Origin: Clostridia bacterium
GTDB taxonomy: Bacteria; Bacillota; Clostridia; TANB77; CAG-508
DNA length: 64,000 nucleotides
Assembly: GCA_022797145.1 (NCBI GenBank)
Contig: JAAWKA010000003.1
Coordinates: forward strand, 26,164 to 90,163
Reading direction: 5' to 3'
Shown here: positions 3,558 to 34,890 of the stretch, piece after piece
How positions within the stretch are numbered: the first letter of the stretch is position 1
Layout of the letters: every line of letters begins with the position of its first letter
Translations under genes and position numbers: made by a program
The notes under the pieces: generated by a model
Databases searched by the model: none
What the model saw: the letters and a program-made list of their open reading frames with translations, nothing else
What the model was told of the DNA's origin: nothing

Positions 3558-3663
3558 AGATTATATAAAACTAATAAAAAGTATACGCTATTTTCACAAT
3601 TTAGACACATATAAAAAATATAATATGTAATATTTATGAAAACAAACAAGGAGTGAAATACAC

Positions 3664-4341
3664 ATGAACAATAGAACCGTGTTAATAGTAGATGATGAAG
3701 TAAGAATGAGAAAATTAATAAAGGATTTTTTAGTTCAAAAGGAATATTCAGTATTAGAAGCAGAAAATGGTGAAGAGGCATTAGAAGTATTTGAAGAAAA
3801 GCAAAATATAATAGATATTATTCTCTTAGATATAATGATGCCTAAATTAGATGGCTGGTCAGTGCTAAGACAAATCAGACAAACTTCTAAAGTACCAATA
3901 ATAATGTTAACAGCAAGAGGAGAAGAACAAGATGAATTATTTGGATTTGAGTTAGGAGTTGATGAATATATATCAAAACCATTTAGTCCTAAAGTACTAG
4001 TAGCAAGAGTAGAAGCAATACTAAAAAGAACAAAACCAATACAAAATGATATAAAAGATTATGGTGGAATTGTAATAGATGCTGATGGAAGAACTGTGAA
4101 AATAGATGGGAAAGATGTAGAAATGAGTTTAAGAGAATATGAACTATTAAAATATTTAGTAGATAATGAAGCAATAGCATTATCAAGAGATAAAATATTA
4201 AATAATGTATGGAATTATGATTATTATGGAGATTCTAGAACAATAGATAGTCATATAAAAAAGATAAGACATAAATTAGGAAAAAAAGGAAAATATATTC
4301 AAACAATGAGAGGAATAGGATATAAATTTGAGGTGAAATAG
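3664..4341 (+). CDS. two-component response regulator, OmpR family
   Basis: The N-terminal receiver has the LIVDDE motif and the phospho-acceptor Asp context LDIMMP, with a Lys near the end. The C-terminal winged helix shows a trans_reg_C pattern (MSLREYELLKYL, YIQTMRGIGYKF). Confidence 0.85.
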   Translation: MNNRTVLIVDDEVRMRKLIKDFLVQKEYSVLEAENGEEALEVFEEKQNIIDIILLDIMMPKLDGWSVLRQIRQTSKVPIIMLTARGEEQDELFGFELGVDEYISKPFSPKVLVARVEAILKRTKPIQNDIKDYGGIVIDADGRTVKIDGKDVEMSLREYELLKYLVDNEAIALSRDKILNNVWNYDYYGDSRTIDSHIKKIRHKLGKKGKYIQTMRGIGYKFEVK

Positions 4342-4343
4342 AA

Positions 4344-5856
4344 TTGGATAACATAAAGAACAAATTAAAATCAATAAGAGTAAAACTATTTTTAACTTTG
4401 TGTATTGTAGTCATTATAATAATTGCATTTCTAATAATCACAAATAACTTTATATTAGAAACCTTCTATCTATATTCAAAACAAAGAAAGCTAGTATCAG
4501 TATATGAAACTTTAAACAATTATTATACTAATCAAGATTTAAACATAAATTTAGAACTAGAATTAGAAAAAATAGCAATTAATAATAACTTTGATATAGT
4601 TGTAAAAACAGATAAAAATGTTAGTATATATTCCATAAATAGAGATTTTTTAAGCACAATTAATTCAATTAACTCAATAACTAATATGGTAGCAAAAAAT
4701 GAAAATATAATATTAAGAAATGATAAAGTTACGATACAAAAAATAGAAGACTCAAAAAATCGGTTTAACATTTATTCTATGTCATGCTACATTAGATAAT
4801 GGATATAAACTCTATATAAGAATGCCAGTGGCTTCTATACATGAAAGTGTAAAAATATCAAATAATTTTTTATACTTAATAGGAGGATTTACAATAATTG
4901 TAGGTGGAATAGTAGTATCGATCATATCTAGAAGATTTACTACTCCAATATTAGAATTAAATAATATAGCAAAAAAAATGTCAAAACTAGATTTTAGTCA
5001 TAAATATAATATAACTGATATAGATGATGAAATAAATAACTTAGGAAAAAGTATAAATACAATGTCAGACAAATTGGAAAGAACTATAAGACAACTAAGA
5101 AATACTAATATTGAGCTAGAAAAGGATATAGAAGAAAAATCTCAAATAGATGAAATGAGAAAACAATTTATACAGGATGTATCACATGAGTTAAAAACTC
5201 CAATAGCACTAATACAAGGATATGCAGAAGGACTAATAGAAAATGTAAATAAAGATGAAGAAAGTAGAAATTTTTATTCAGAAGTAATACTAGATGAAGC
5301 AAATAAAATGGATAAATTAGTAAAACAACTATTAGAACTAATGAAATTAGAATATGGAAAAAGGCAGTTTAACAATAAAAGATTTGACATACAGGAGCTA
5401 ATAACAGAAGTAATAAGAAAGTCTACAGTAATGTTAGAAGAAAAACAAATAGAGGTAGAATTTGATAATAAAGTACCAATTTATGTATATGCAGATGATT
5501 TTTATGTAGAACAAGTAGTGACAAACTATTTTACAAATGCAATAAAACATGTAAAAGAAGTAAATAAGAAAAAGATAATAAGGATAACAAATACAATAAA
5601 TAAAGAAAAGAATGTAGTAAGAATAAAAATATTTAATACAGGAGAAAATATAGATGAAGAAAAATTAACAAGAATATGGAATAGGTTTTATAAAATAGAT
5701 GAATCAAGAAATAGACAAGAAGGTGGAACAGGAATTGGGCTATCACTAGTAAAAGCAATAATGAATAACTATAACCAAGATTATGGAGTAATAAATCATG
5801 AAAATGGAGTAGAATTTTATTTTGAATTATCTAGTGAGCAGCTATGTAAAATATAA
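4344..5856 (+). pseudogene. sensor histidine kinase, apparently frameshifted (4344..4799 N-terminal TM/sensor part; 4822..5856 TM2-HAMP-HisKA-HATPase part)
   Basis: Two adjacent same-strand ORFs in different frames. The first has TM1 plus an extracytoplasmic domain. The second continues upstream open in its own frame (..LDNGYKLYIRMPVAS..), then has TM2 (LYLIGGFTIIVGGIVVSII), the H-box (DVSHELKTPIALIQGYAEGL) and the N/G1/G2 boxes. The frame change lies within 4747-4800. Confidence 0.6.
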
Positions 5857-8656: not shown

Positions 8657-9379
8657 ATGTATGAAAATAATATACTAGATATACAAAAAGCCCAAAAAGG
8701 TGATCAAGGAGCAATGACCAATTTAATTAATAATAATAAAGGATTAATATGGAACATTGTAAAAAGATTTACCAATAGAGGATATGAAACAGAAGATATC
8801 TACCAAATAGGCTGTATGGGTTTTTTAAAAGCAATAAAAAGATTTGATACAAATTTTGAAGTACAGGTTTCTACATATGCAGTACCATATATATTAGGAG
8901 AAATAAAAAGATTTATAAGAGATGATGGAGCAATAAAGGTTAGTAGAAGTACTAAAGAATTAGCAATTAAAATATTAGAATTACAAAAACAGCATTTAAA
9001 TAAAACAGGTGAAGAAATAACAATATCAGAAATTTCAAAAGAATTAAAAATTCCAAAAGAAGAAATTACATTTGCATTAGACTGTTTAAAACCAGTATCT
9101 TCAATATATGAAGAAAGCACAACATCATCAGATGATGATAGAACTTTAATTGATAAAATAAGTACAAATAAAGATGAGGCAAGTATGATAACAGATAAAA
9201 TAGCAATAAGTGAATTAATAAAAAACTTAAATGATAGAGAAAAACAGATTATTATGCTTCGCTTTTACAAAGACAAAACACAAGCACAAGTTGCAAAGGT
9301 TTTGGGTATAACACAAGTACAAGTATCTAGAATAGAAAAAAAGATTTTACACAATATGAAATTAAAATTAACAAGTTAA
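8657..9379 (+). CDS. sigF: RNA polymerase sporulation sigma factor sigma-F
   Basis: 240 aa with sigma-70 region 2 (YQIGCMGFLKAIKRFD, STYAVPYILGEIKRF), region 3, and the region 4 HTH (QAQVAKVLGITQVQVSRIEKK). It is the third gene of the spoIIA operon. Confidence 0.9.
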   Translation: MYENNILDIQKAQKGDQGAMTNLINNNKGLIWNIVKRFTNRGYETEDIYQIGCMGFLKAIKRFDTNFEVQVSTYAVPYILGEIKRFIRDDGAIKVSRSTKELAIKILELQKQHLNKTGEEITISEISKELKIPKEEITFALDCLKPVSSIYEESTTSSDDDRTLIDKISTNKDEASMITDKIAISELIKNLNDREKQIIMLRFYKDKTQAQVAKVLGITQVQVSRIEKKILHNMKLKLTS

Positions 9380-15851: not shown

Positions 15852-17237
15852 ATGGTGGAAAAAACAATGGAGAAAATTGTTAATTTATGTAAGTCAAGAG
15901 GATATGTATATTCAGGATCTGAAATATATGGTGGTCTTGCAAATACATGGGATTATGGGCCACTAGGAGTAGAATTGAAAAATAATATAAAAAAAGCATG
16001 GCTAAAAAAGTTTGTACAAGAAAGTAAATATAATGTAGGTTTAGATTCAGCAATTTTGATGAATCCTAAAACTTGGATAGCATCAGGGCATATAGCAGGT
16101 TTTAGTGATCCATTAATAGATTGTAAAGAGTGTAAAACAAGACATAGAGCAGATAAGCTAATAGAAGAATGGATGCATGAGAATGATTGTGAAGAAATAG
16201 TAGATGGATGGGCAGATGAAAAAATGATTGACTATATAAAAGAGCATAGTATTTCATGTCCTAATTGTGGAAAAGAAAATTTTACATCAATAAGAAAATT
16301 TAATTTGATGTTTAAAACATTTCAAGGAGTAACAGAGGAGGCAAAAGCAGAGATTTATCTAAGACCAGAAACAGCACAAGGAATTTTTATAAATTTTAAG
16401 AATGTATTAAGAACTACAAGAAAAAAATTACCAATGGGAATAGCACAAATTGGAAAATCATTTAGGAATGAAATAACACCAGGAAACTTTATATTTAGAA
16501 CAAGAGAGTTCGAACAAATGGAACTAGAATTTTTTTGCAAACCAGGAACAGATTTAGAGTGGCATAAATATTGGAAGGAGTTTTGCAAGAACTGGTTAAT
16601 AAATTTAGGAATGAAAGAGGAAAATATACGATTAAGAGATCATTCAAAAGAAGAGTTATCACATTATAGTAATGCAACAACAGATATAGAATTTGCATTT
16701 CCATTTGGGTTTGGAGAATTATGGGGAATTGCAGATAGAACAGACTTTGATTTAAAAAGTCATATGGACTATTCAGGAGAGGATTTCATATATTTAGATC
16801 AAGAAACTCAGGAAAGATATATACCATATTGTATAGAACCATCACTTGGATGTGATAGGGTAGCACTTGCATTTTTATGTAATGCATATAATGAAGAAGA
16901 AATAGGAGAAGATGATAATCGTATAGTATTAAGATTACATCCAGCGTTGGCTCCATATAAAATAGCAATTTTGCCATTATCAAAAAAATTAAGTTTAAAA
17001 GCTGAAGAAATTTATTCTAGCTTATCAAAAAAATTTATGTGTGATTATGATGAAACAGGAAGTATAGGAAAACGTTATAGAAGGGAAGACGAGATAGGAA
17101 CACCGTATTGCTTAACAGTAGATTTTGATACTTTACAAGATAATACAGTAACTATAAGAGATAGGGATACAATGGAACAAATAAGAATAAATATAGAAGA
17201 GGTAGAAAAATGGATAGAAAGTAAAATTGAATTTTAG
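15852..17237 (+). CDS. glyQS: glycyl-tRNA synthetase (class II, dimeric GlyQS type)
   Basis: 461 aa. The N-terminal block [28 protein letters not shown] and class II motifs are present. Confidence 0.9.
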
Positions 17238-17347
17238 AATATGCTTAATGTATGTAAAAAAGCTTTCTCAAATTAACTTAAGTTCTAATATAAACTTCCA
17301 TTGAATACAATGTACAAAACAGGGTAATTCATAAGGGGGTTTTTCAT

Positions 17348-17608
17348 TTGGGAAAAATATATATAGAAGAACGTGCAGTGAATTTGGCACATTATATAAT
17401 AGATAGTGGAGATACTGTAAGGGGAGCAGCAAAAAGGTTTGGAATTTCAAAAAGTACAGTACACAAGGATGTAACACTAAAGAACGGTAAAAGAAATGGA
17501 CATGTAGAGGAGGCTATTAGCTGTCCGATTCTAGAAAGTATTGAGATTAGGAAGGTTTTTTTAGCAGAGAAAAATCCTATTGTGAGGTTGGGGTTGGTGA
17601 TTAAATAA
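17348..17608 (+). CDS. spoIIID: spoIIID 5' portion, interrupted. Codons 1-42 (17348..17474) encode the SpoIIID HTH and the remaining 44 codons are read into the inserted element.
   Basis: TTG start with RBS AAGGGGG. The product matches SpoIIID through ..FGISKSTVHKDV and then diverges. The missing C-terminus is found at 25940..26082. Confidence 0.7.
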   Translation: MGKIYIEERAVNLAHYIIDSGDTVRGAAKRFGISKSTVHKDVTLKNGKRNGHVEEAISCPILESIEIRKVFLAEKNPIVRLGLVIK

Positions 17609-17732
17609 AAATAAGTAAAGTATTTCGAGTTAGTATGCTTGAAATACTTTATTTTTGTTACTAGTTAATAATTAGCAAATAATCTATATTAAACTACTAA
17701 CTAGTAATTATTTTTTTAAGTATAAAAAGGTA

Positions 17733-17763
17733 TTGACATACATTTTAGCACGTGCTAAAATGT
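17733..17763 (+). promoter_or_regulatory. promoter (TTGACA 17733-17738; TAAAAT 17756-17761) overlapped by a 24-bp perfect palindrome ACATTTTAGCACGTGCTAAAATGT (17740-17763)
   Basis: Read directly from the sequence. The palindrome is perfect and the spacer is 17 bp. Confidence 0.5.
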
Positions 17764-17783
17764 ATAAAGTAAGGAGGAATAGT

Positions 17784-18275
17784 ATGAATATAATAAATGA
17801 TATTAGAGAAAAACAAAATCAACTTATTGTTATGATTAATGCAACATTTGATGAACTTGTAAGAAAAGTAGAAGATTTACAATCAGGAAGTAATGAATAT
17901 GAAAAAGAATATGAAAGTGTATATCCAATAACAAATACGACAGGATTTAAGGGAAAGAAACCAATTGCAGTTAAAATAGCAAATGAACGTATAACAGCTT
18001 CTACATGGAAGATAGTTGTTGAAAAAATATTAAAACAAGTATTAAAAGACAGAGAGATGGAAGATAGATTAATGGCGTTGAGAGATAAGATATTAGGCAG
18101 AAAGAGAACAAGAGTGTCTTCTAGCAATGTGACTATGCGTAGTCCATTAAAGTTAAATGAAAAATTATATATAGAAACGCATTATGATACAGAGACTTTA
18201 ATGAACTTTTTAATACAGATTTTAAGTGAAATTCATTATGATTATAATAATATAGAAATAGTAATAAAGAATTAA
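17784..18275 (+). CDS. hypothetical protein (element cargo, first gene of a 3-gene cassette)
   Basis: ATG preceded by AAGGAGG. The ORF-track start at 17733 lies inside the promoter. Confidence 0.4.
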   Translation: MNIINDIREKQNQLIVMINATFDELVRKVEDLQSGSNEYEKEYESVYPITNTTGFKGKKPIAVKIANERITASTWKIVVEKILKQVLKDREMEDRLMALRDKILGRKRTRVSSSNVTMRSPLKLNEKLYIETHYDTETLMNFLIQILSEIHYDYNNIEIVIKN

Positions 18276-18284
18276 TGGGAGAGA

Positions 18285-18758
18285 ATGAAATGTTTTATAG
18301 CAGATCCACACTTTAACCATGAAAATATAATTAAATATTGCAATAGACCATTTGAAAATTCAAATGAAATGAACGAATATATAATAAACAAATGGAATTC
18401 GGTTGTTAATGAAAATGATGTTGTCTATCATTTAGGAGATGTTGGATTTGGGAATACAGAAGAATTAAAGCAATTAGTCGGAAGATTAAATGGTACAAAA
18501 ATATTAATAAGAGGAAATCACGATTATAAAAGAGGATTAAATGGTTGGAAAGAAGTTGGATTTAATGAAGTATATAAAAAGAGATTAGTTTTGAATAATC
18601 TAATTTTAACACATGAACCAATTGAAGTAGAAGAAAATTGCATCAATGTTTTTGGACATATACATGATAAACCATTAGACGAAAGATTTAATAAAGAAAA
18701 TCACATTTGTGTGTCATGTGATGCAATTGATTATACACCTATACCTATTAGTAATTAG
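18285..18758 (+). CDS. small calcineurin-like metallophosphoesterase
   Basis: Motifs DPHFNH, GDVGFG, GNHD and GHIHD. Confidence 0.7.
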   Translation: MKCFIADPHFNHENIIKYCNRPFENSNEMNEYIINKWNSVVNENDVVYHLGDVGFGNTEELKQLVGRLNGTKILIRGNHDYKRGLNGWKEVGFNEVYKKRLVLNNLILTHEPIEVEENCINVFGHIHDKPLDERFNKENHICVSCDAIDYTPIPISN

Positions 18759-18774
18759 AGGAGGAACTGAATAT

Positions 18775-19164
18775 ATGAATTTAAAAGATTTAAAACAAGA
18801 AATCAGTAAAGAAGCAATAGAAGGATATAAGGTGAAGACAAATTTTAGTTCATGTGAGTTTCTTGTAGAGGTTGGAAATATAACAATAATGGCTAAGCCA
18901 ATATGCTTAGAAAAAGAAGTTAGATATGAATTTATGTTAGATACACAATGGTTATCTTCTAATGAAATTACTTATAAAGAAATAGTTATGATAAAAAATG
19001 TCATGGATATATTAAATGAAAATAAAAAGCTAACCATTTCAAGATTAAAGAAATGGACTGTAGAAGAATATAAAAAAGATAAAAGAAAAAGAGAAGAACA
19101 AAGTGAGCAAATGCTAGAAATGTTAAAAAATGCTTATTATAATAGTCAAAATTCATGGAAATAA
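18775..19164 (+). CDS. hypothetical protein (third gene of the cassette)
   Basis: ATG at 18775 after AGAGGAGG, followed by a hairpin terminator at about 19168-19215. Confidence 0.4.
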   Translation: MNLKDLKQEISKEAIEGYKVKTNFSSCEFLVEVGNITIMAKPICLEKEVRYEFMLDTQWLSSNEITYKEIVMIKNVMDILNENKKLTISRLKKWTVEEYKKDKRKREEQSEQMLEMLKNAYYNSQNSWK

Positions 19165-19226
19165 ATTAAAGTAAACCCACGCAAATGTATTGACAAATGC
19201 GTGGTTTTACTTTAAAATAATAATAG

Positions 19227-19778
19227 GTGATAAATATGATATATAATTATAAAGAAATTATAGAAATTTATAGAAATGATTACAATTTAAAGAAAGCATT
19301 GAATAAAAATGAAATTTTTAAATTAGATAAAGGAATATATTCAAAGAAAAAAATAGTTAGTCCACTTGTAATATATTCAAAAAAATATCCCAATAGTGTT
19401 ATCACAATGGATAGTGCATTTTATTATTATAATTTGACAGATGTTATACCAAGTAAAGTGTATTTAGCGACAGATAGAAATACTGATAAAATAAATAATG
19501 AGAAAATTGTTCAGACATTTATGTCAAAGGATATATTGTACCAAGGAAAGGTAAATGTGCAAACAAATGATGGAGTAATAAATATTTATGACAGAGAAAG
19601 ATTGTTAATTGAATTAATAAGAAAAAAGAAACAAATTCCTTTTGACTATTATAAAGAAATCATATCTAATTATAGAGCAATTGTAGATGAACTAGATATG
19701 TATAAAATAGAAGAATATTTAGCATTATTTAAGAATGATATGAGTTTATCAAATATACTACAAATGGAGGTCTTTTAG
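19227..19778 (+). CDS. AbiEi-family antitoxin/transcriptional regulator
   Basis: The l.kGiY motif (FKLDKGIYSKKK) and the SAFYYYNLTDVIPSKVYLAT block are typical of AbiEi. Its stop overlaps the start of the next gene (ATGA). Confidence 0.55.
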   Translation: MINMIYNYKEIIEIYRNDYNLKKALNKNEIFKLDKGIYSKKKIVSPLVIYSKKYPNSVITMDSAFYYYNLTDVIPSKVYLATDRNTDKINNEKIVQTFMSKDILYQGKVNVQTNDGVINIYDRERLLIELIRKKKQIPFDYYKEIISNYRAIVDELDMYKIEEYLALFKNDMSLSNILQMEVF

Positions 19779-20599
19779 TGAATATAGAAGAAGCAATTGA
19801 AAAATATCAAAAATTAGGATATGAATTTGAAGAAGCAGAGTCAAAAGTTTGTCAAGATATTATTTTGTTAAAAATATCTCAAAGTAAATTTTCTAAAAAT
19901 ATAACAATTAAGGGTGGAGTAGTAATACACAGTATATCAAATGATATACGTAGAGCAACACAAGATTTAGACTTGGATTTTATAAAATATTCGTTAGATG
20001 ATAAATCTATAAAAAATTTCATAAAAACATTAAGTGATATAAATGATGGCATAAAGATAAATATCATGGGTAAAATTGTACCATTACATCACCAAGATTA
20101 TGCTGGAAAAAGAGTTAATTTAAAGATACATGATAATTTTGAAAATACTATGCATACAAAACTAGATATAGGAGTACATAAATTATTTGAATTAGAACAA
20201 GAGGAATATTGCTTTAGTTTTGATTTATATAAAAATAGTGCAAATTTATTAATTAATTCTATGGAGCAGATTTTTACAGAGAAATTGAAATCACTTTTGA
20301 AATTAGGATTTAGATCTACAAGGTATAAAGATTTATTTGATTTTTACTATTTAATAGAAAACAATAAATTAGATAAAGAGAAATTAATAAATTGTATTGA
20401 AATATTAATTTTTAAAGATGAAACAATCAGAGAAAATACAATCCAAGATATTATAACTAGAATGAAAGGAACTCTTGATTCCCAAAGATATCGTAATAAT
20501 TTAAATAGTCCAAAAGTTAATTGGTTAGGAATACCAATCGAAGAAACAATAAATATAGTGTTAGATTATATAAGTAGTTTAGAGAAAATAACAGCTTAA
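19778..20599 (+). CDS. AbiEii-family (DUF1814) nucleotidyltransferase toxin
   Basis: A GG-containing NTase motif (ITIKGGVVIHS) and a DLDLDF acidic motif, at the expected size (273 aa), coupled to AbiEi. Confidence 0.5.
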   Translation: MNIEEAIEKYQKLGYEFEEAESKVCQDIILLKISQSKFSKNITIKGGVVIHSISNDIRRATQDLDLDFIKYSLDDKSIKNFIKTLSDINDGIKINIMGKIVPLHHQDYAGKRVNLKIHDNFENTMHTKLDIGVHKLFELEQEEYCFSFDLYKNSANLLINSMEQIFTEKLKSLLKLGFRSTRYKDLFDFYYLIENNKLDKEKLINCIEILIFKDETIRENTIQDIITRMKGTLDSQRYRNNLNSPKVNWLGIPIEETINIVLDYISSLEKITA

Positions 20600-20674
20600 T
20601 AAAATTGAATATAATGGAGAAAATTTAATAGAATATGAATAAAAGGAGTACTATATATTAGTTGGAGGAAATAT

Positions 20675-21265
20675 ATGATGATAGAAAAAAATATTGAAGA
20701 TTTAAAATTAATTCAAGTTTTATGGAATTACATGAAGATGAATCAAAAATTGAAACCTTCAGATTGTATTATTGGATTAGGAACTATGGATACAAATGTA
20801 GCTAAAGTTGCATCAAAATTGTATTTAGATGGTTATGCTGACAAAATTATATTTTCAGGGGGATTAGGCAAAATTACATATAAATTATGGAATGTAACAG
20901 AGGCAGAGAAATTTGAAGAAATTGCAATAAAAAATGGTGTACCAAAAGAAAGAATATATTTAGAAAAACAATCAACTAATACAGGAGATAACTTTAGATT
21001 TTCTAAGAAATTAATAGAAAAAGAAAAATTAAATGTAAAATCGTGCATAGTTGTATGCAAGCCTTATGATGAAAAAAGAACATATGCAGCATTTAAGAAA
21101 ATAATGCCAGAATATGAAGTTATAATTAACTCTGAAGATATTGATTGTGAAGAATATTATAAAAGGAACAAAACGGAATGGGTTAGTGTTCTTGTGGGAG
21201 ACATTCAAAGAATGAAATTGTTTTATGAAAAGGGCTGGCAAATAAAAATGGATATTCCTCAATAA
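20675..21265 (+). CDS. DUF218 (YdcF/SanA-like) domain protein
   Basis: Blocks CIIGLG, KIIFSGG and QSTNTGDN match the DUF218 pattern. Confidence 0.55.
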   Translation: MMIEKNIEDLKLIQVLWNYMKMNQKLKPSDCIIGLGTMDTNVAKVASKLYLDGYADKIIFSGGLGKITYKLWNVTEAEKFEEIAIKNGVPKERIYLEKQSTNTGDNFRFSKKLIEKEKLNVKSCIVVCKPYDEKRTYAAFKKIMPEYEVIINSEDIDCEEYYKRNKTEWVSVLVGDIQRMKLFYEKGWQIKMDIPQ

Positions 21266-21554
21266 GTATGGGAAGCTTATTATATATTAGTAAAAAGAGG
21301 ATATGATAAATTTGTTTTGAAAGACAAAGAAGATAAAGATGAAAAGAAGAATATTGAAATGAAACTAAATAAAATATTATAACCTTATAAAAATTATTCA
21401 AAAGTAAATACACCTAAACAGTATAATTGAAATCTCCTCAATTAAAATTGAGGGCAGGAAAGCGAGTATTAACAATCGCTTACACACATTGAAGGACAAG
21501 CCTTAAAGAATTAATAAAAGAACAAAAATTTTAAGCAGATTTGATGTAAAAATT

Positions 21555-33132: not shown

Positions 33133-34890
33133 CTAATTTTCCTCATACTCGAAATGATGAGTAAGGCCATTTTTTAATGTAATATGATGGATTTTTTTAT
33201 GATCTACTGATATTTCACTTATAATAGTAGATAAGAAATCTTTGATAACAGACTTATCAACATTTTCTAATAAATGTCTAACATCTATATTTTTCTTAGT
33301 ATTTATATGTTTAGTAAGTAAAAAGAAGCTAGATTTTAATATAAAAGAAAAATCATTATTATTCATATATTGTTTTTCTTCTTTTTTTGTATTATTGATT
33401 TTAGCATTTATAGCTTCTATACTGTCAGAGATTTCTTTTCTTTTTATAATAAAATCCTTTTGTGGCATACTATCTTGTGAATACAGATATAAGTCATCTA
33501 ACCTTTTTAATGCATTTTCTAGCTTTTCTTTTTCTAAAGTATATATTTTTTCTTTGTCTGTAATACTTTCTATTTTATTTTCTTTTTTGTTCTTTAATTT
33601 GTATGAATCTGTTTTGGTACTTTGTAACAACAATGTATATGTTTTCTTAATATCTTCCATATTTATATTTTGAATATCAGAAAAATAAGGTCCTCTTAAC
33701 AAAATGCTTTTCATATCCCTATATGAATGATTTGAGGTGATTTTATTGCTTAAAGTAATATAATTGGATATATAATTTATCAAGAATGATAATATGTTTA
33801 AATCGCTTGCATAGTTATTGCATTTAATTGCATTTCTGTATATATAGCAAGTATAACGAGAGGGAGTAAAGCCATTGCTACGAGTTCTATCATTTCCTGC
33901 AATCATTTTATTTCCACAAGTACTACATCTAATGATTCCAGATAATATATGAGTTTCTGTATTTTCTTTTTGTCTGTTATAATCACCTTTATAATTATTT
34001 TTTAATATATCTTGTATTTTATCAAATTGTTCTTTAGCAATTATAGCCATGTGGTTATTTTCAATAACAATCCATTCCTTTTTATCTTTCCATCTTCTAG
34101 TTTTCTGTGTTTTTGTATTATATCTATAAGTACCAATATAAAATGGATTCGAAAGAATTGCACCCACAGTTCTTGCTGTCCAAGTAGCATTACGCTTAGT
34201 CGGTATGTTCTCAGCATTCAATTTTTGTGCTACTTTAGTTGTAGAACGCAGTTCCTCATATAAATCATAAGTATACTGTACTATTTTAGTTTCAGGCTCA
34301 TAAGGCTTTGGAAATCTAGTCTCTTCATCCCATTCATAACCAAAAGGAACTGTCGCACCATTCCATAATCCTTTTTCTGCTCTTGACATCATAACAGCAA
34401 AGACTCTTTCTGCAGTTAATTTTCTTTCTAATTCTGCGAATACAAGTATTATTTTTAGCATTGCTTCCCCCATAGCTGTTGATGTATCAAATTGCTCATT
34501 TTTAGATATGAATGTTACATTATAATGTTTTAGTTCATCATACATTTCAGAGAAGTCTCGTAAATTTCTACTGATACGATCAATTTTCCACACTAATAGA
34601 TGTGTAAATTCTCCAACTCTAATTCTAGACATCATTTTTTGGTAATCTGGTCTATCTGTATTTTTAGCAGAATATCCTGCATCTTCAAATATAACAAAAT
34701 CATTTGTATTCAATACATATTTACAATAGTTTATTAAATCTTTTCGCTGCAAGGGAAGAGAATCCTTATCTATTTGATGGGATGTAGATACCCTTATATA
34801 TATTGCTACCTTAATATTTAGTACATTCCTTATATCATACAATTTATTTGATTTTTCCAATAAAAAAACCTCCATTTTCTTATATTTCAC
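33133..34890 (-). CDS. large serine recombinase (prophage integrase)
   Basis: N-terminal resolvase domain (VAIYIRVSTSHQIDKDSLPLQ), recombinase domain and Cys cluster, 585 aa. Confidence 0.85.
   Translation of the reverse strand: MKYKKMEVFLLEKSNKLYDIRNVLNIKVAIYIRVSTSHQIDKDSLPLQRKDLINYCKYVLNTNDFVIFEDAGYSAKNTDRPDYQKMMSRIRVGEFTHLLVWKIDRISRNLRDFSEMYDELKHYNVTFISKNEQFDTSTAMGEAMLKIILVFAELERKLTAERVFAVMMSRAEKGLWNGATVPFGYEWDEETRFPKPYEPETKIVQYTYDLYEELRSTTKVAQKLNAENIPTKRNATWTARTVGAILSNPFYIGTYRYNTKTQKTRRWKDKKEWIVIENNHMAIIAKEQFDKIQDILKNNYKGDYNRQKENTETHILSGIIRCSTCGNKMIAGNDRTRSNGFTPSRYTCYIYRNAIKCNNYASDLNILSFLINYISNYITLSNKITSNHSYRDMKSILLRGPYFSDIQNINMEDIKKTYTLLLQSTKTDSYKLKNKKENKIESITDKEKIYTLEKEKLENALKRLDDLYLYSQDSMPQKDFIIKRKEISDSIEAINAKINNTKKEEKQYMNNNDFSFILKSSFFLLTKHINTKKNIDVRHLLENVDKSVIKDFLSTIISEISVDHKKIHHITLKNGLTHHFEYEEN

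Follow-up and report, generated by a model that had tools for sequence, protein, structure and literature searches.

A three-gene cassette at the left end of an element that splits the sporulation gene spoIIID in a Clostridia bacterium is probably a chimera of two unrelated modules and not a single functional unit. The cassette (positions 17733-19215, genes g1, g2 and g3) lies in a 64,000-nucleotide stretch of contig JAAWKA010000003.1, here called the window, and it had originally been predicted, from the sequence of the window, to be a palindrome-controlled phage-defence or anti-defence module. Our comparisons suggest that the two modules were joined by recombination inside the roughly 8.5-kb serine-recombinase element in one lineage of gut Clostridia. 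Module A (about 17710-18275) consists of a strong sigma-A promoter, a CACGTG-centred operator and g1, a self-contained combination present in many gut Firmicutes. Module B (18285-20599) is a mobile block of g2, predicted to be active, the orphan gene g3 and an AbiEi/AbiEii pair with its own operator. The g1 protein most likely binds the operator, probably as a dimer formed through its long N-terminal helix, and would thereby occlude RNA polymerase at its own promoter. Module B has lost its native promoter here and the ATG of g2 now stands 9 nucleotides (nt) past the g1 stop codon, so that g2 and g3 are probably expressed only through read-through from the g1 promoter; such read-through would place them under control of the palindrome by historical accident and not by design.

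The gene calls and the near-consensus promoter of the original prediction hold. The sigma-A-type promoter of g1 is found at 17733-17761 on the + strand (TTGACA at 17733-17738, a 17-nt spacer with TG in the arrangement TG-n-TAAAAT, and TAAAAT at 17756-17761), matches the consensus at 11/12 positions, is among the two top-scoring matches of the scanned region and keeps its architecture in homologous loci. The palindrome over it is likewise real, and is perfect over 28 base pairs (bp) at 17738-17765, ATACATTTTAGCAC|GTGCTAAAATGTAT, the 24 bp first reported being its inner part; a palindrome scan and conservation upstream of g1 homologues place the operator core TAGCAC|GTGCTA at 17746-17757. This 28-bp palindrome occurs once in the window, with 0 matches expected in shuffled sequence, and an Rfam search of 17200-19400 gave nothing close to threshold. 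The three genes, all on the + strand, encode proteins of 163 (g1, 17784-18275), 157 (g2, 18285-18758) and 129 amino acids (aa; g3, 18775-19164), each preceded by a Shine-Dalgarno sequence and separated by gaps of 9 nt (g1-g2) and 16 nt (g2-g3). No terminator was called on the + strand between 17762 and 19114, where the best promoter match reaches only 9/12, and we infer from the short gaps and from these scan results that the three genes are co-transcribed.

Upstream of most g1 homologues we observed a palindrome centred on GCAC|GTGC, 29-37 nt before the start codon, in Clostridia, 'Bacilli' metagenome-assembled genomes, Oscillospiraceae, Defluviitaleaceae and termite-gut Firmicutes whose g1 identities range from 37 to 100%. 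GCACGTG stands 15-50 nt before the start codon in 51 of the 63 distinct g1 upstream regions, and six more carry a CATATG or CATGTG variant core, giving 57/63 with the core or a symmetric or single-base variant of it; the background frequency of CACGTG is 0.11 per kb. Only GCAC|GTGC is invariant in these operators, the outer bases varying between clades. In genomes of low guanine-cytosine (GC) content the operator overlaps the spacer and the -10 hexamer, and in the Oscillospiraceae and the termite-gut group the promoter lies about 20 bp further upstream and the operator covers the transcription start; both placements are repressor positions. A role of the palindrome at the RNA level was considered and set aside: the probable transcription start of low-GC genomes lies downstream of it, which makes a role at the DNA level more parsimonious. 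In two termite-gut loci (L058, about 4940-4985, and L062, about 330-375; handles of this kind denote comparison loci) the operator has grown to a perfect palindrome of 40-42 bp that spans the -10 hexamer to the Shine-Dalgarno sequence and is longer than a simple dimer site needs. The exact 12-mer TAGCACGTGCTA was found at g1 promoters only in about 1 Mb of fetched locus DNA and once in the window, and no gene but g1 accompanies the site constantly. Judged by this distribution, the palindrome is a family-specific footprint that belongs to module A, and within it to g1 alone. The repressor control assigned to it by the original prediction thus concerns a genuine, conserved operator-like element, but one that pertains to g1 and not to the whole cassette.

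Operator and protein also vary together. All four loci with a CATATG core (L055/L025, L037, L043 and L046) encode Met instead of Thr at g1 residue 138, and Met138 is present in none of the 42 g1 sequences with a CACGTG operator. In the CATATG loci both operator halves are changed symmetrically, and the g1 of L046 is a pseudogene. Residue 138 sits in an invariant ETHYDTE-T-L motif at the start of a predicted helix (136-149), and L055, L037 and L043 occupy separate positions in a neighbour-joining tree from which the L046 pseudogene was left out. This pattern suggests that g1 binds its own operator. Because g1 is the sole constant partner of the site and residue 138 covaries with it, we propose that g1 is an autorepressor, that is, a sequence-specific DNA-binding protein that would repress its own promoter. 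Such a protein would resemble AbiEi acting on the abiE promoter and the controller proteins of restriction-modification systems, which are likewise autoregulated repressors: the palindrome covers the spacer, the -10 hexamer or the transcription start, the downstream gene is its only constant partner, and operator and protein co-vary. Unlike the known autorepressors, g1 has no helix-turn-helix (HTH), winged HTH (wHTH) or ribbon-helix-helix (RHH) motif, nor could a relative with a known function be detected.

The lack of a known DNA-binding motif in g1 is also what lends some plausibility to the alternative that a separate host regulator, conserved widely, acts at the palindrome and that g1 is merely its target gene. 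Single-gene regulons exist, and the low-GC half-sites TTAGCAC/GTGCTAA resemble the outer part of CIRCE, the HrcA site. CIRCE, however, has a 9-nt spacer, and the invariant GCAC|GTGC is zero-spaced, with outer bases that depend on the clade. The constant linkage to g1, the covariation of residue 138 with the central operator bases and the absence of the exact 12-mer elsewhere in the fetched flanking DNA also argue against a separate regulator, which we regard as unlikely, if still the strongest of the competing explanations. None of the LexA, CIRCE/HrcA, cre/CcpA, Rex, Fur/PerR, FapR, MerR-type and PadR sites fits a zero-spaced GCAC|GTGC, and no paper on bacteria turned up when the literature was searched for the operator core. 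The CACGTG core does resemble the E-box of eukaryotic basic helix-loop-helix and basic leucine zipper factors, a resemblance and nothing beyond it.

The composite nature of the cassette became apparent when g1 loci were collected from metagenome look-ups, species-representative genomes and JGI metagenomes, with up to 4-8 kb of flanking DNA per locus, and searched for g2 and g3 by tblastn. Neither gene was found near g1 in any of about 90 loci outside the window's species, including loci whose g1 is 94-99% identical, and the exact trio occurs in the window's own species only, on 21 or more contigs (for L109 and L110, where it was measured, nucleotide identity is 97.7-99.7%). Locus L016 shares the interrupted spoIIID and the left end with the window and carries a g1 that is 99% identical, followed by entirely different genes. 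Conversely, a 92%-identical g2 lies between KilA-N and Schlafen-like genes in a recombinase-flanked island without g3, and a 76%-identical g2 in a Mob_Pre element. Alignment by blastn places the breakpoints at the g1|g2 gap: homology to g1 loci stops at 18274-18276 (L017, L018) or 18304 (L016), and homology to L014, L015 and L115-L120 begins exactly at 18285, the g2 start codon, continuing at 91-94% identity through g3 and, in L115-L120, on through AbiEii. The recombination junction between module A and module B thus falls at 18276-18284 on the + strand, and the g2 ribosome-binding site of the window derives from sequence that in L016 is the start of a different gene. L014, L015 and L115-L120 have in common a promoter region before g2 (TTGAAT-17-TACAAT, followed by ACAAATGTTCG) that is absent from the window, and this native module-B promoter was seen in five other contexts. 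Because the breakpoints lie at the g1|g2 gap and the native promoter is missing, the operon is best read as module A fused to a module B that has no promoter of its own in front of g2.

The ACAAATGTTCG that follows the native g2-g3 promoter (L014, about 3650-3700; L115, L116 and L118) looks like half of a Firmicute LexA box. The full box is GAAC-N4-GTTC. Judging from this likeness, the g2-g3 block may be damage-inducible in its original contexts.

Several considerations weigh against a chimera with g1 as its autorepressor. Recognisable HTH, wHTH or RHH motifs were lacking from g1 in both family and fold searches, and a regulator that acts on itself only has no obvious purpose. The covariation comprises four loci and was set against a neighbour-joining tree without support values; further operator copies were sought within the roughly 1 Mb of fetched loci and the window, and a separate regulator acting in trans is conceivable. 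Co-transcription of g1-g2-g3, too, is deduced solely from the spacing and from the terminator and promoter scan. Finally, module B travels as a single block of 2.3 kb with an identity of about 94%, and a functional link between g2 and g3, perhaps including AbiE, is possible.

The last point can be taken further, with g2-g3, with or without AbiE, as the unit that truly functions together (say, a phosphoesterase and its partner or regulator, accompanying the AbiE abortive-infection system) and to which g1 is irrelevant. The g2-g3-AbiEi-AbiEii block occurs in at least three contexts, and the pair shares a promoter before g2 and persists where AbiE has been replaced (L014, L015). All the pairs, however, are 91-94% identical at the DNA level, as copies of one recent block would be, and they do not appear to represent conserved synteny. 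The 92%-identical g2 is followed by KilA-N and not by g3, and g3 homologues of 63-80% identity never lie beside a phosphoesterase. We therefore hold this alternative to be improbable, somewhat more so than a separate regulator.

A defence or anti-defence module made up of all three genes, as first envisaged, is far less probable still. The genes are packed behind one strong, operator-bearing promoter beside AbiE in the cargo of a mobile element, and the trio is stable in the contigs of the window's species. Yet that species-level lineage is the only one to have it, each gene is found alone elsewhere, and the junction runs through the g1|g2 gap. In the PADLOC search for defence families, g1 and g3 matched nothing and none of the three rose above noise, the only match of g2 being a weak, partial one of 42 residues to PDC-S10 (E = 5e-4). 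Moreover, neither g1 nor g3 was found in IMG/VR, INPHARED (50,697 phage records) or PLSDB (72,556 plasmids). Since the trio is not conserved as a unit outside the window's species, the co-occurrence check proposed in the original prediction speaks against the three-gene module. The preferred reading remains a chimera, the cassette being an ordinary mosaic of cargo genes whose common control is probably accidental.

The proteins flanking g2 were described as unknown by the original prediction, and family and fold searches bear this out. The g1 protein combines a long N-terminal helix with an alpha/beta domain (AlphaFold2 model with a predicted local distance difference test score, pLDDT, of 87) and has at least 150 homologues, none of them named; the family as a whole counts 468 clusters at 50% identity. 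It belongs to no family in Pfam, PHROG, PADLOC or NCBIfam; the PDB, searched by sequence and by profile, returned only a 19-bit stretch of SAMHD1, judged to be chance, and Foldseek searches of the PDB and BFVD gave no match at E <= 0.001 and no DNA-binding fold. Its C-terminal domain, which spans about residues 44-163, can be repeated as a module: profile searches found it in tandem copies in three proteins, in one protein behind an N6 DNA methylase domain and in one behind DUF3846 (P0312, P0246, P0257, P0269 and P0345 are the proteins with a tandem or fused copy). The methylase fusion is the sole hint of a DNA-binding domain.

The second gene was correctly recognised as a calcineurin-like phosphoesterase. 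It scores 27.6 bits against PF00149 (gathering cut-off 21.5), with strong matches to phrog_547 (7.9e-46) and PDB entry 1xm7 (3.7e-8). All five metallophosphoesterase motifs (DxH, GD, GNH[DE], H and GHxH) are in place, and 15 homologues (66-100% identity) show no change at residues D7, H9, D52, N78, H79, D80, H110, H125 and H127. With a complete active site and these matches, g2 is an intact phage-type metallophosphoesterase. It is alike to the PHROG 547 phosphoesterases and to 1xm7 (Aquifex aq_1665) in motifs and in a length of about 155-165 aa. The 1624 phage records that g2 matches are all below 60% identity, and many relatives of 66-92% identity lie on long bacterial contigs; unlike the phage members, these nearest relatives belong to gut Firmicutes, as genes of the chromosome or of element cargo. 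By analogy with mycobacteriophage Bxb1 gp47, a metallophosphoesterase annotated as a recombination directionality factor, g2 might serve the recombinase of its element in this way, but beyond the superfamily fold and the large-serine-recombinase context the two have little in common (gp47 belongs to phrog_221, 2e-115, and g2 to phrog_547, with a non-significant BLASTP E = 0.056), the related elements L030 (89%-identical recombinase) and L016 (same left end) are without g2, and g2 relatives are common in large lytic phages without an integrase context, so that we rejected this most improbable of the alternatives.

The g3 protein, with a helix, a four-stranded sheet and a long C-terminal helix (AlphaFold2 pLDDT 92), has at least 160 homologues, none named. 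No family was found for it in Pfam, PHROG, PADLOC or NCBIfam and no PDB match by sequence or profile, nor by Foldseek at E <= 0.001. Homologues of 63-80% identity lie beside Bro-N, NT5C, UDG, NUDIX, YhcG, Fic, Ham1 or ABC genes. Homologues of g3 and the cargo that follows g1 in L016 (L009-L013, L016, L125-L128) lie in islands rich in small stand-alone nucleotide-metabolising hydrolases, variously NT5C, UDG, NUDIX, Ham1/ITPase and HAD-like proteins, together with Bro-N, Fic and YhcG.

The direct neighbourhood of AbiE, part of the original description, was borne out: an AbiEi antitoxin (19236-19778) and an AbiEii toxin (19778-20599), both on the + strand, adjoin the cassette and complete module B (PADLOC 1.7e-68 and 8.7e-104; Pfam AbiEii 6.2e-20). 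The repeat scan detected a stable inverted repeat at 19166-19215, with two 23-nt arms, a 4-nt gap and a predicted RNA fold of -22.4 kcal/mol (z = -6), at the place where a hairpin terminator had been called. Its architecture is that of an AbiEi operator and abiE promoter, with a -35 hexamer TTGACA at 19190 between the arms and a -10 hexamer TAAAAT ending at 19218, and the repeat travels with module B. The AbiEi operator of Streptococcus agalactiae, where AbiEi/AbiEii form a type IV toxin-antitoxin and abortive-infection system, likewise consists of two repeats of 23 bp in inverted orientation that lie in the promoter, 3 bp apart (PMC7319586), as against the 4-nt gap seen here. We therefore consider an operator over the abiE promoter the probable reading, and a better one than a terminator. 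The repeat does lie where a g3 terminator is expected, and given its stable fold and the UUUUACUUU tract after it, it may also terminate g3 transcripts; in the predicted fold this tract is paired to A residues upstream of it (an A-tract), and the terminator scan made no call. The likeness to the S. agalactiae system concerns the neighbour pair and not g1-g3.

The position of the cassette at the left end of the spoIIID element was confirmed by two 16-nt attachment (att) cores at 17459-17474 and 25924-25939, which differ by one base and, when joined, restore an 89-aa SpoIIID. The element itself spans about 17475-25939. The left core, attL (GTACACAAGGATGTAA, + strand), forms its left boundary and lies within a chimeric spoIIID' open reading frame (ORF; 17348-17608, + strand), which joins an authentic 5' part of 43 aa to an element-encoded tail and aligns to positions 2-53 of the 82-position Pfam SpoIIID profile. 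A terminator-like hairpin called by the terminator scan (17608-17659, + strand; -20.1 kcal/mol, z = -5.95) follows this ORF. The tail (LKNGK...LGLVIK; 17475-17608) is conserved in frame in L016 (2160-2270), including an in-frame indel of five codons, and its DNA is about 71% identical in L030 (about 8760-8869). Rather than a by-product, the chimeric SpoIIID' may be a protein with a function. At the right end lie the large serine recombinase (24294-25943, + strand; Pfam Resolvase, Recombinase and Zn_ribbon_recom), whose stop codon falls inside the attR core, and the 3' part of spoIIID (25948-26082, + strand), which encodes ...LKINPVLALEVRRILDENKAERHIRGGMATKLKY.... The gene order within the element is g1, g2, g3, AbiE, a DUF218 gene, an RNase H/RepL-like gene, a toxin-antitoxin-like pair and the recombinase, the last 89% identical to that of the spoIIID element in L030. 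In view of the att cores, the recombinase and the cargo, this is a small non-phage intervening element of the kind known for gerE (PMC5595907). As in gin (gerE of Bacillus cereus) and skin (sigK), non-prophage elements that are cut out when the cell sporulates, a mother-cell sporulation gene is split, here by an element with short flanking att cores and a large serine recombinase at one end. Unlike in gin and skin, the target is spoIIID, and g1, the first gene of the element, lies outside the element beside spoIIID in other genomes.

Among the other cargo genes, the one at 22064-22771 encodes an RNase H domain fused to a RepL-like winged-helix C-terminus; a 69%-identical copy lies directly upstream of an intact spoIIID in L039 (6494-7225), where it is followed by a homologue of the 66-aa ORF found at 23880-24080 in the window. 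This 66-aa ORF and a 146-aa ORF (together 23439-24080), just upstream of the recombinase, are likely a toxin-antitoxin pair, possibly PIN-like. A 64-aa ORF at 22848-23042 is 70% identical to L030 13571-13759, about 0.9 kb upstream of the 89%-identical recombinase, and is a candidate for the recombination directionality factor of the spoIIID element. The phage genes further to the right belong to a separate prophage (35000-64000) with its own large serine recombinase (33133-34890, - strand) and genes for RecT, terminase, an SPP1-type portal and a major capsid protein; an Ntox50 toxin domain lies at the C-terminus of its Mu F-like head protein (57624-59189).

Homologues of g1 recur within 0.1-3.6 kb of spoIIID, on either side of it and both inside and outside intervening elements (L004, L020, L024, L052, L039, L030/L003, L016, L019, L021, L017, L025 and L046). 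The gene lies upstream of an intact spoIIID in L004, L020 and L024, and as a partial copy in the same position in L052; downstream of an intact spoIIID in L039; upstream of a spoIIID interrupted by a related element in L030/L003; and within the element, as its first gene, in the window, L016 and L019. In L046 the pseudogenised g1 adjoins an inverted 5' fragment of spoIIID. Both genes have separate promoters, with a terminator between them at least in L024. The YabG-o122-Veg block beside spoIIID is inverted between genomes. A single rearrangement history that would account for g1 on either side of spoIIID was sought, and no path fits the arrangements. It is conceivable, though we hold it only tentatively, that g1 founds an undescribed DNA-binding family (468 or more clusters at 50% identity, from Firmicutes of the gut and the termite gut), in which the ETHYDTE(T/M)L helix of a non-HTH alpha/beta domain would read a CACGTG-type palindrome for autorepression, and that its adjacency to spoIIID and the att sites would reflect control of this locus or of its rearrangement.

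Tight spacing behind a regulated promoter, beside a known defence system, can thus stem from a recent recombination junction, and because such a junction can mimic a module, synteny across divergent genomes must be checked before one is proposed. What the cassette brings to light is a widespread orphan family with a clear, deeply conserved operator and a candidate specificity residue. Simple and testable, the pair of g1 and its operator could serve to study what is possibly a new domain for DNA recognition, and g1 is also linked to spoIIID and its elements.

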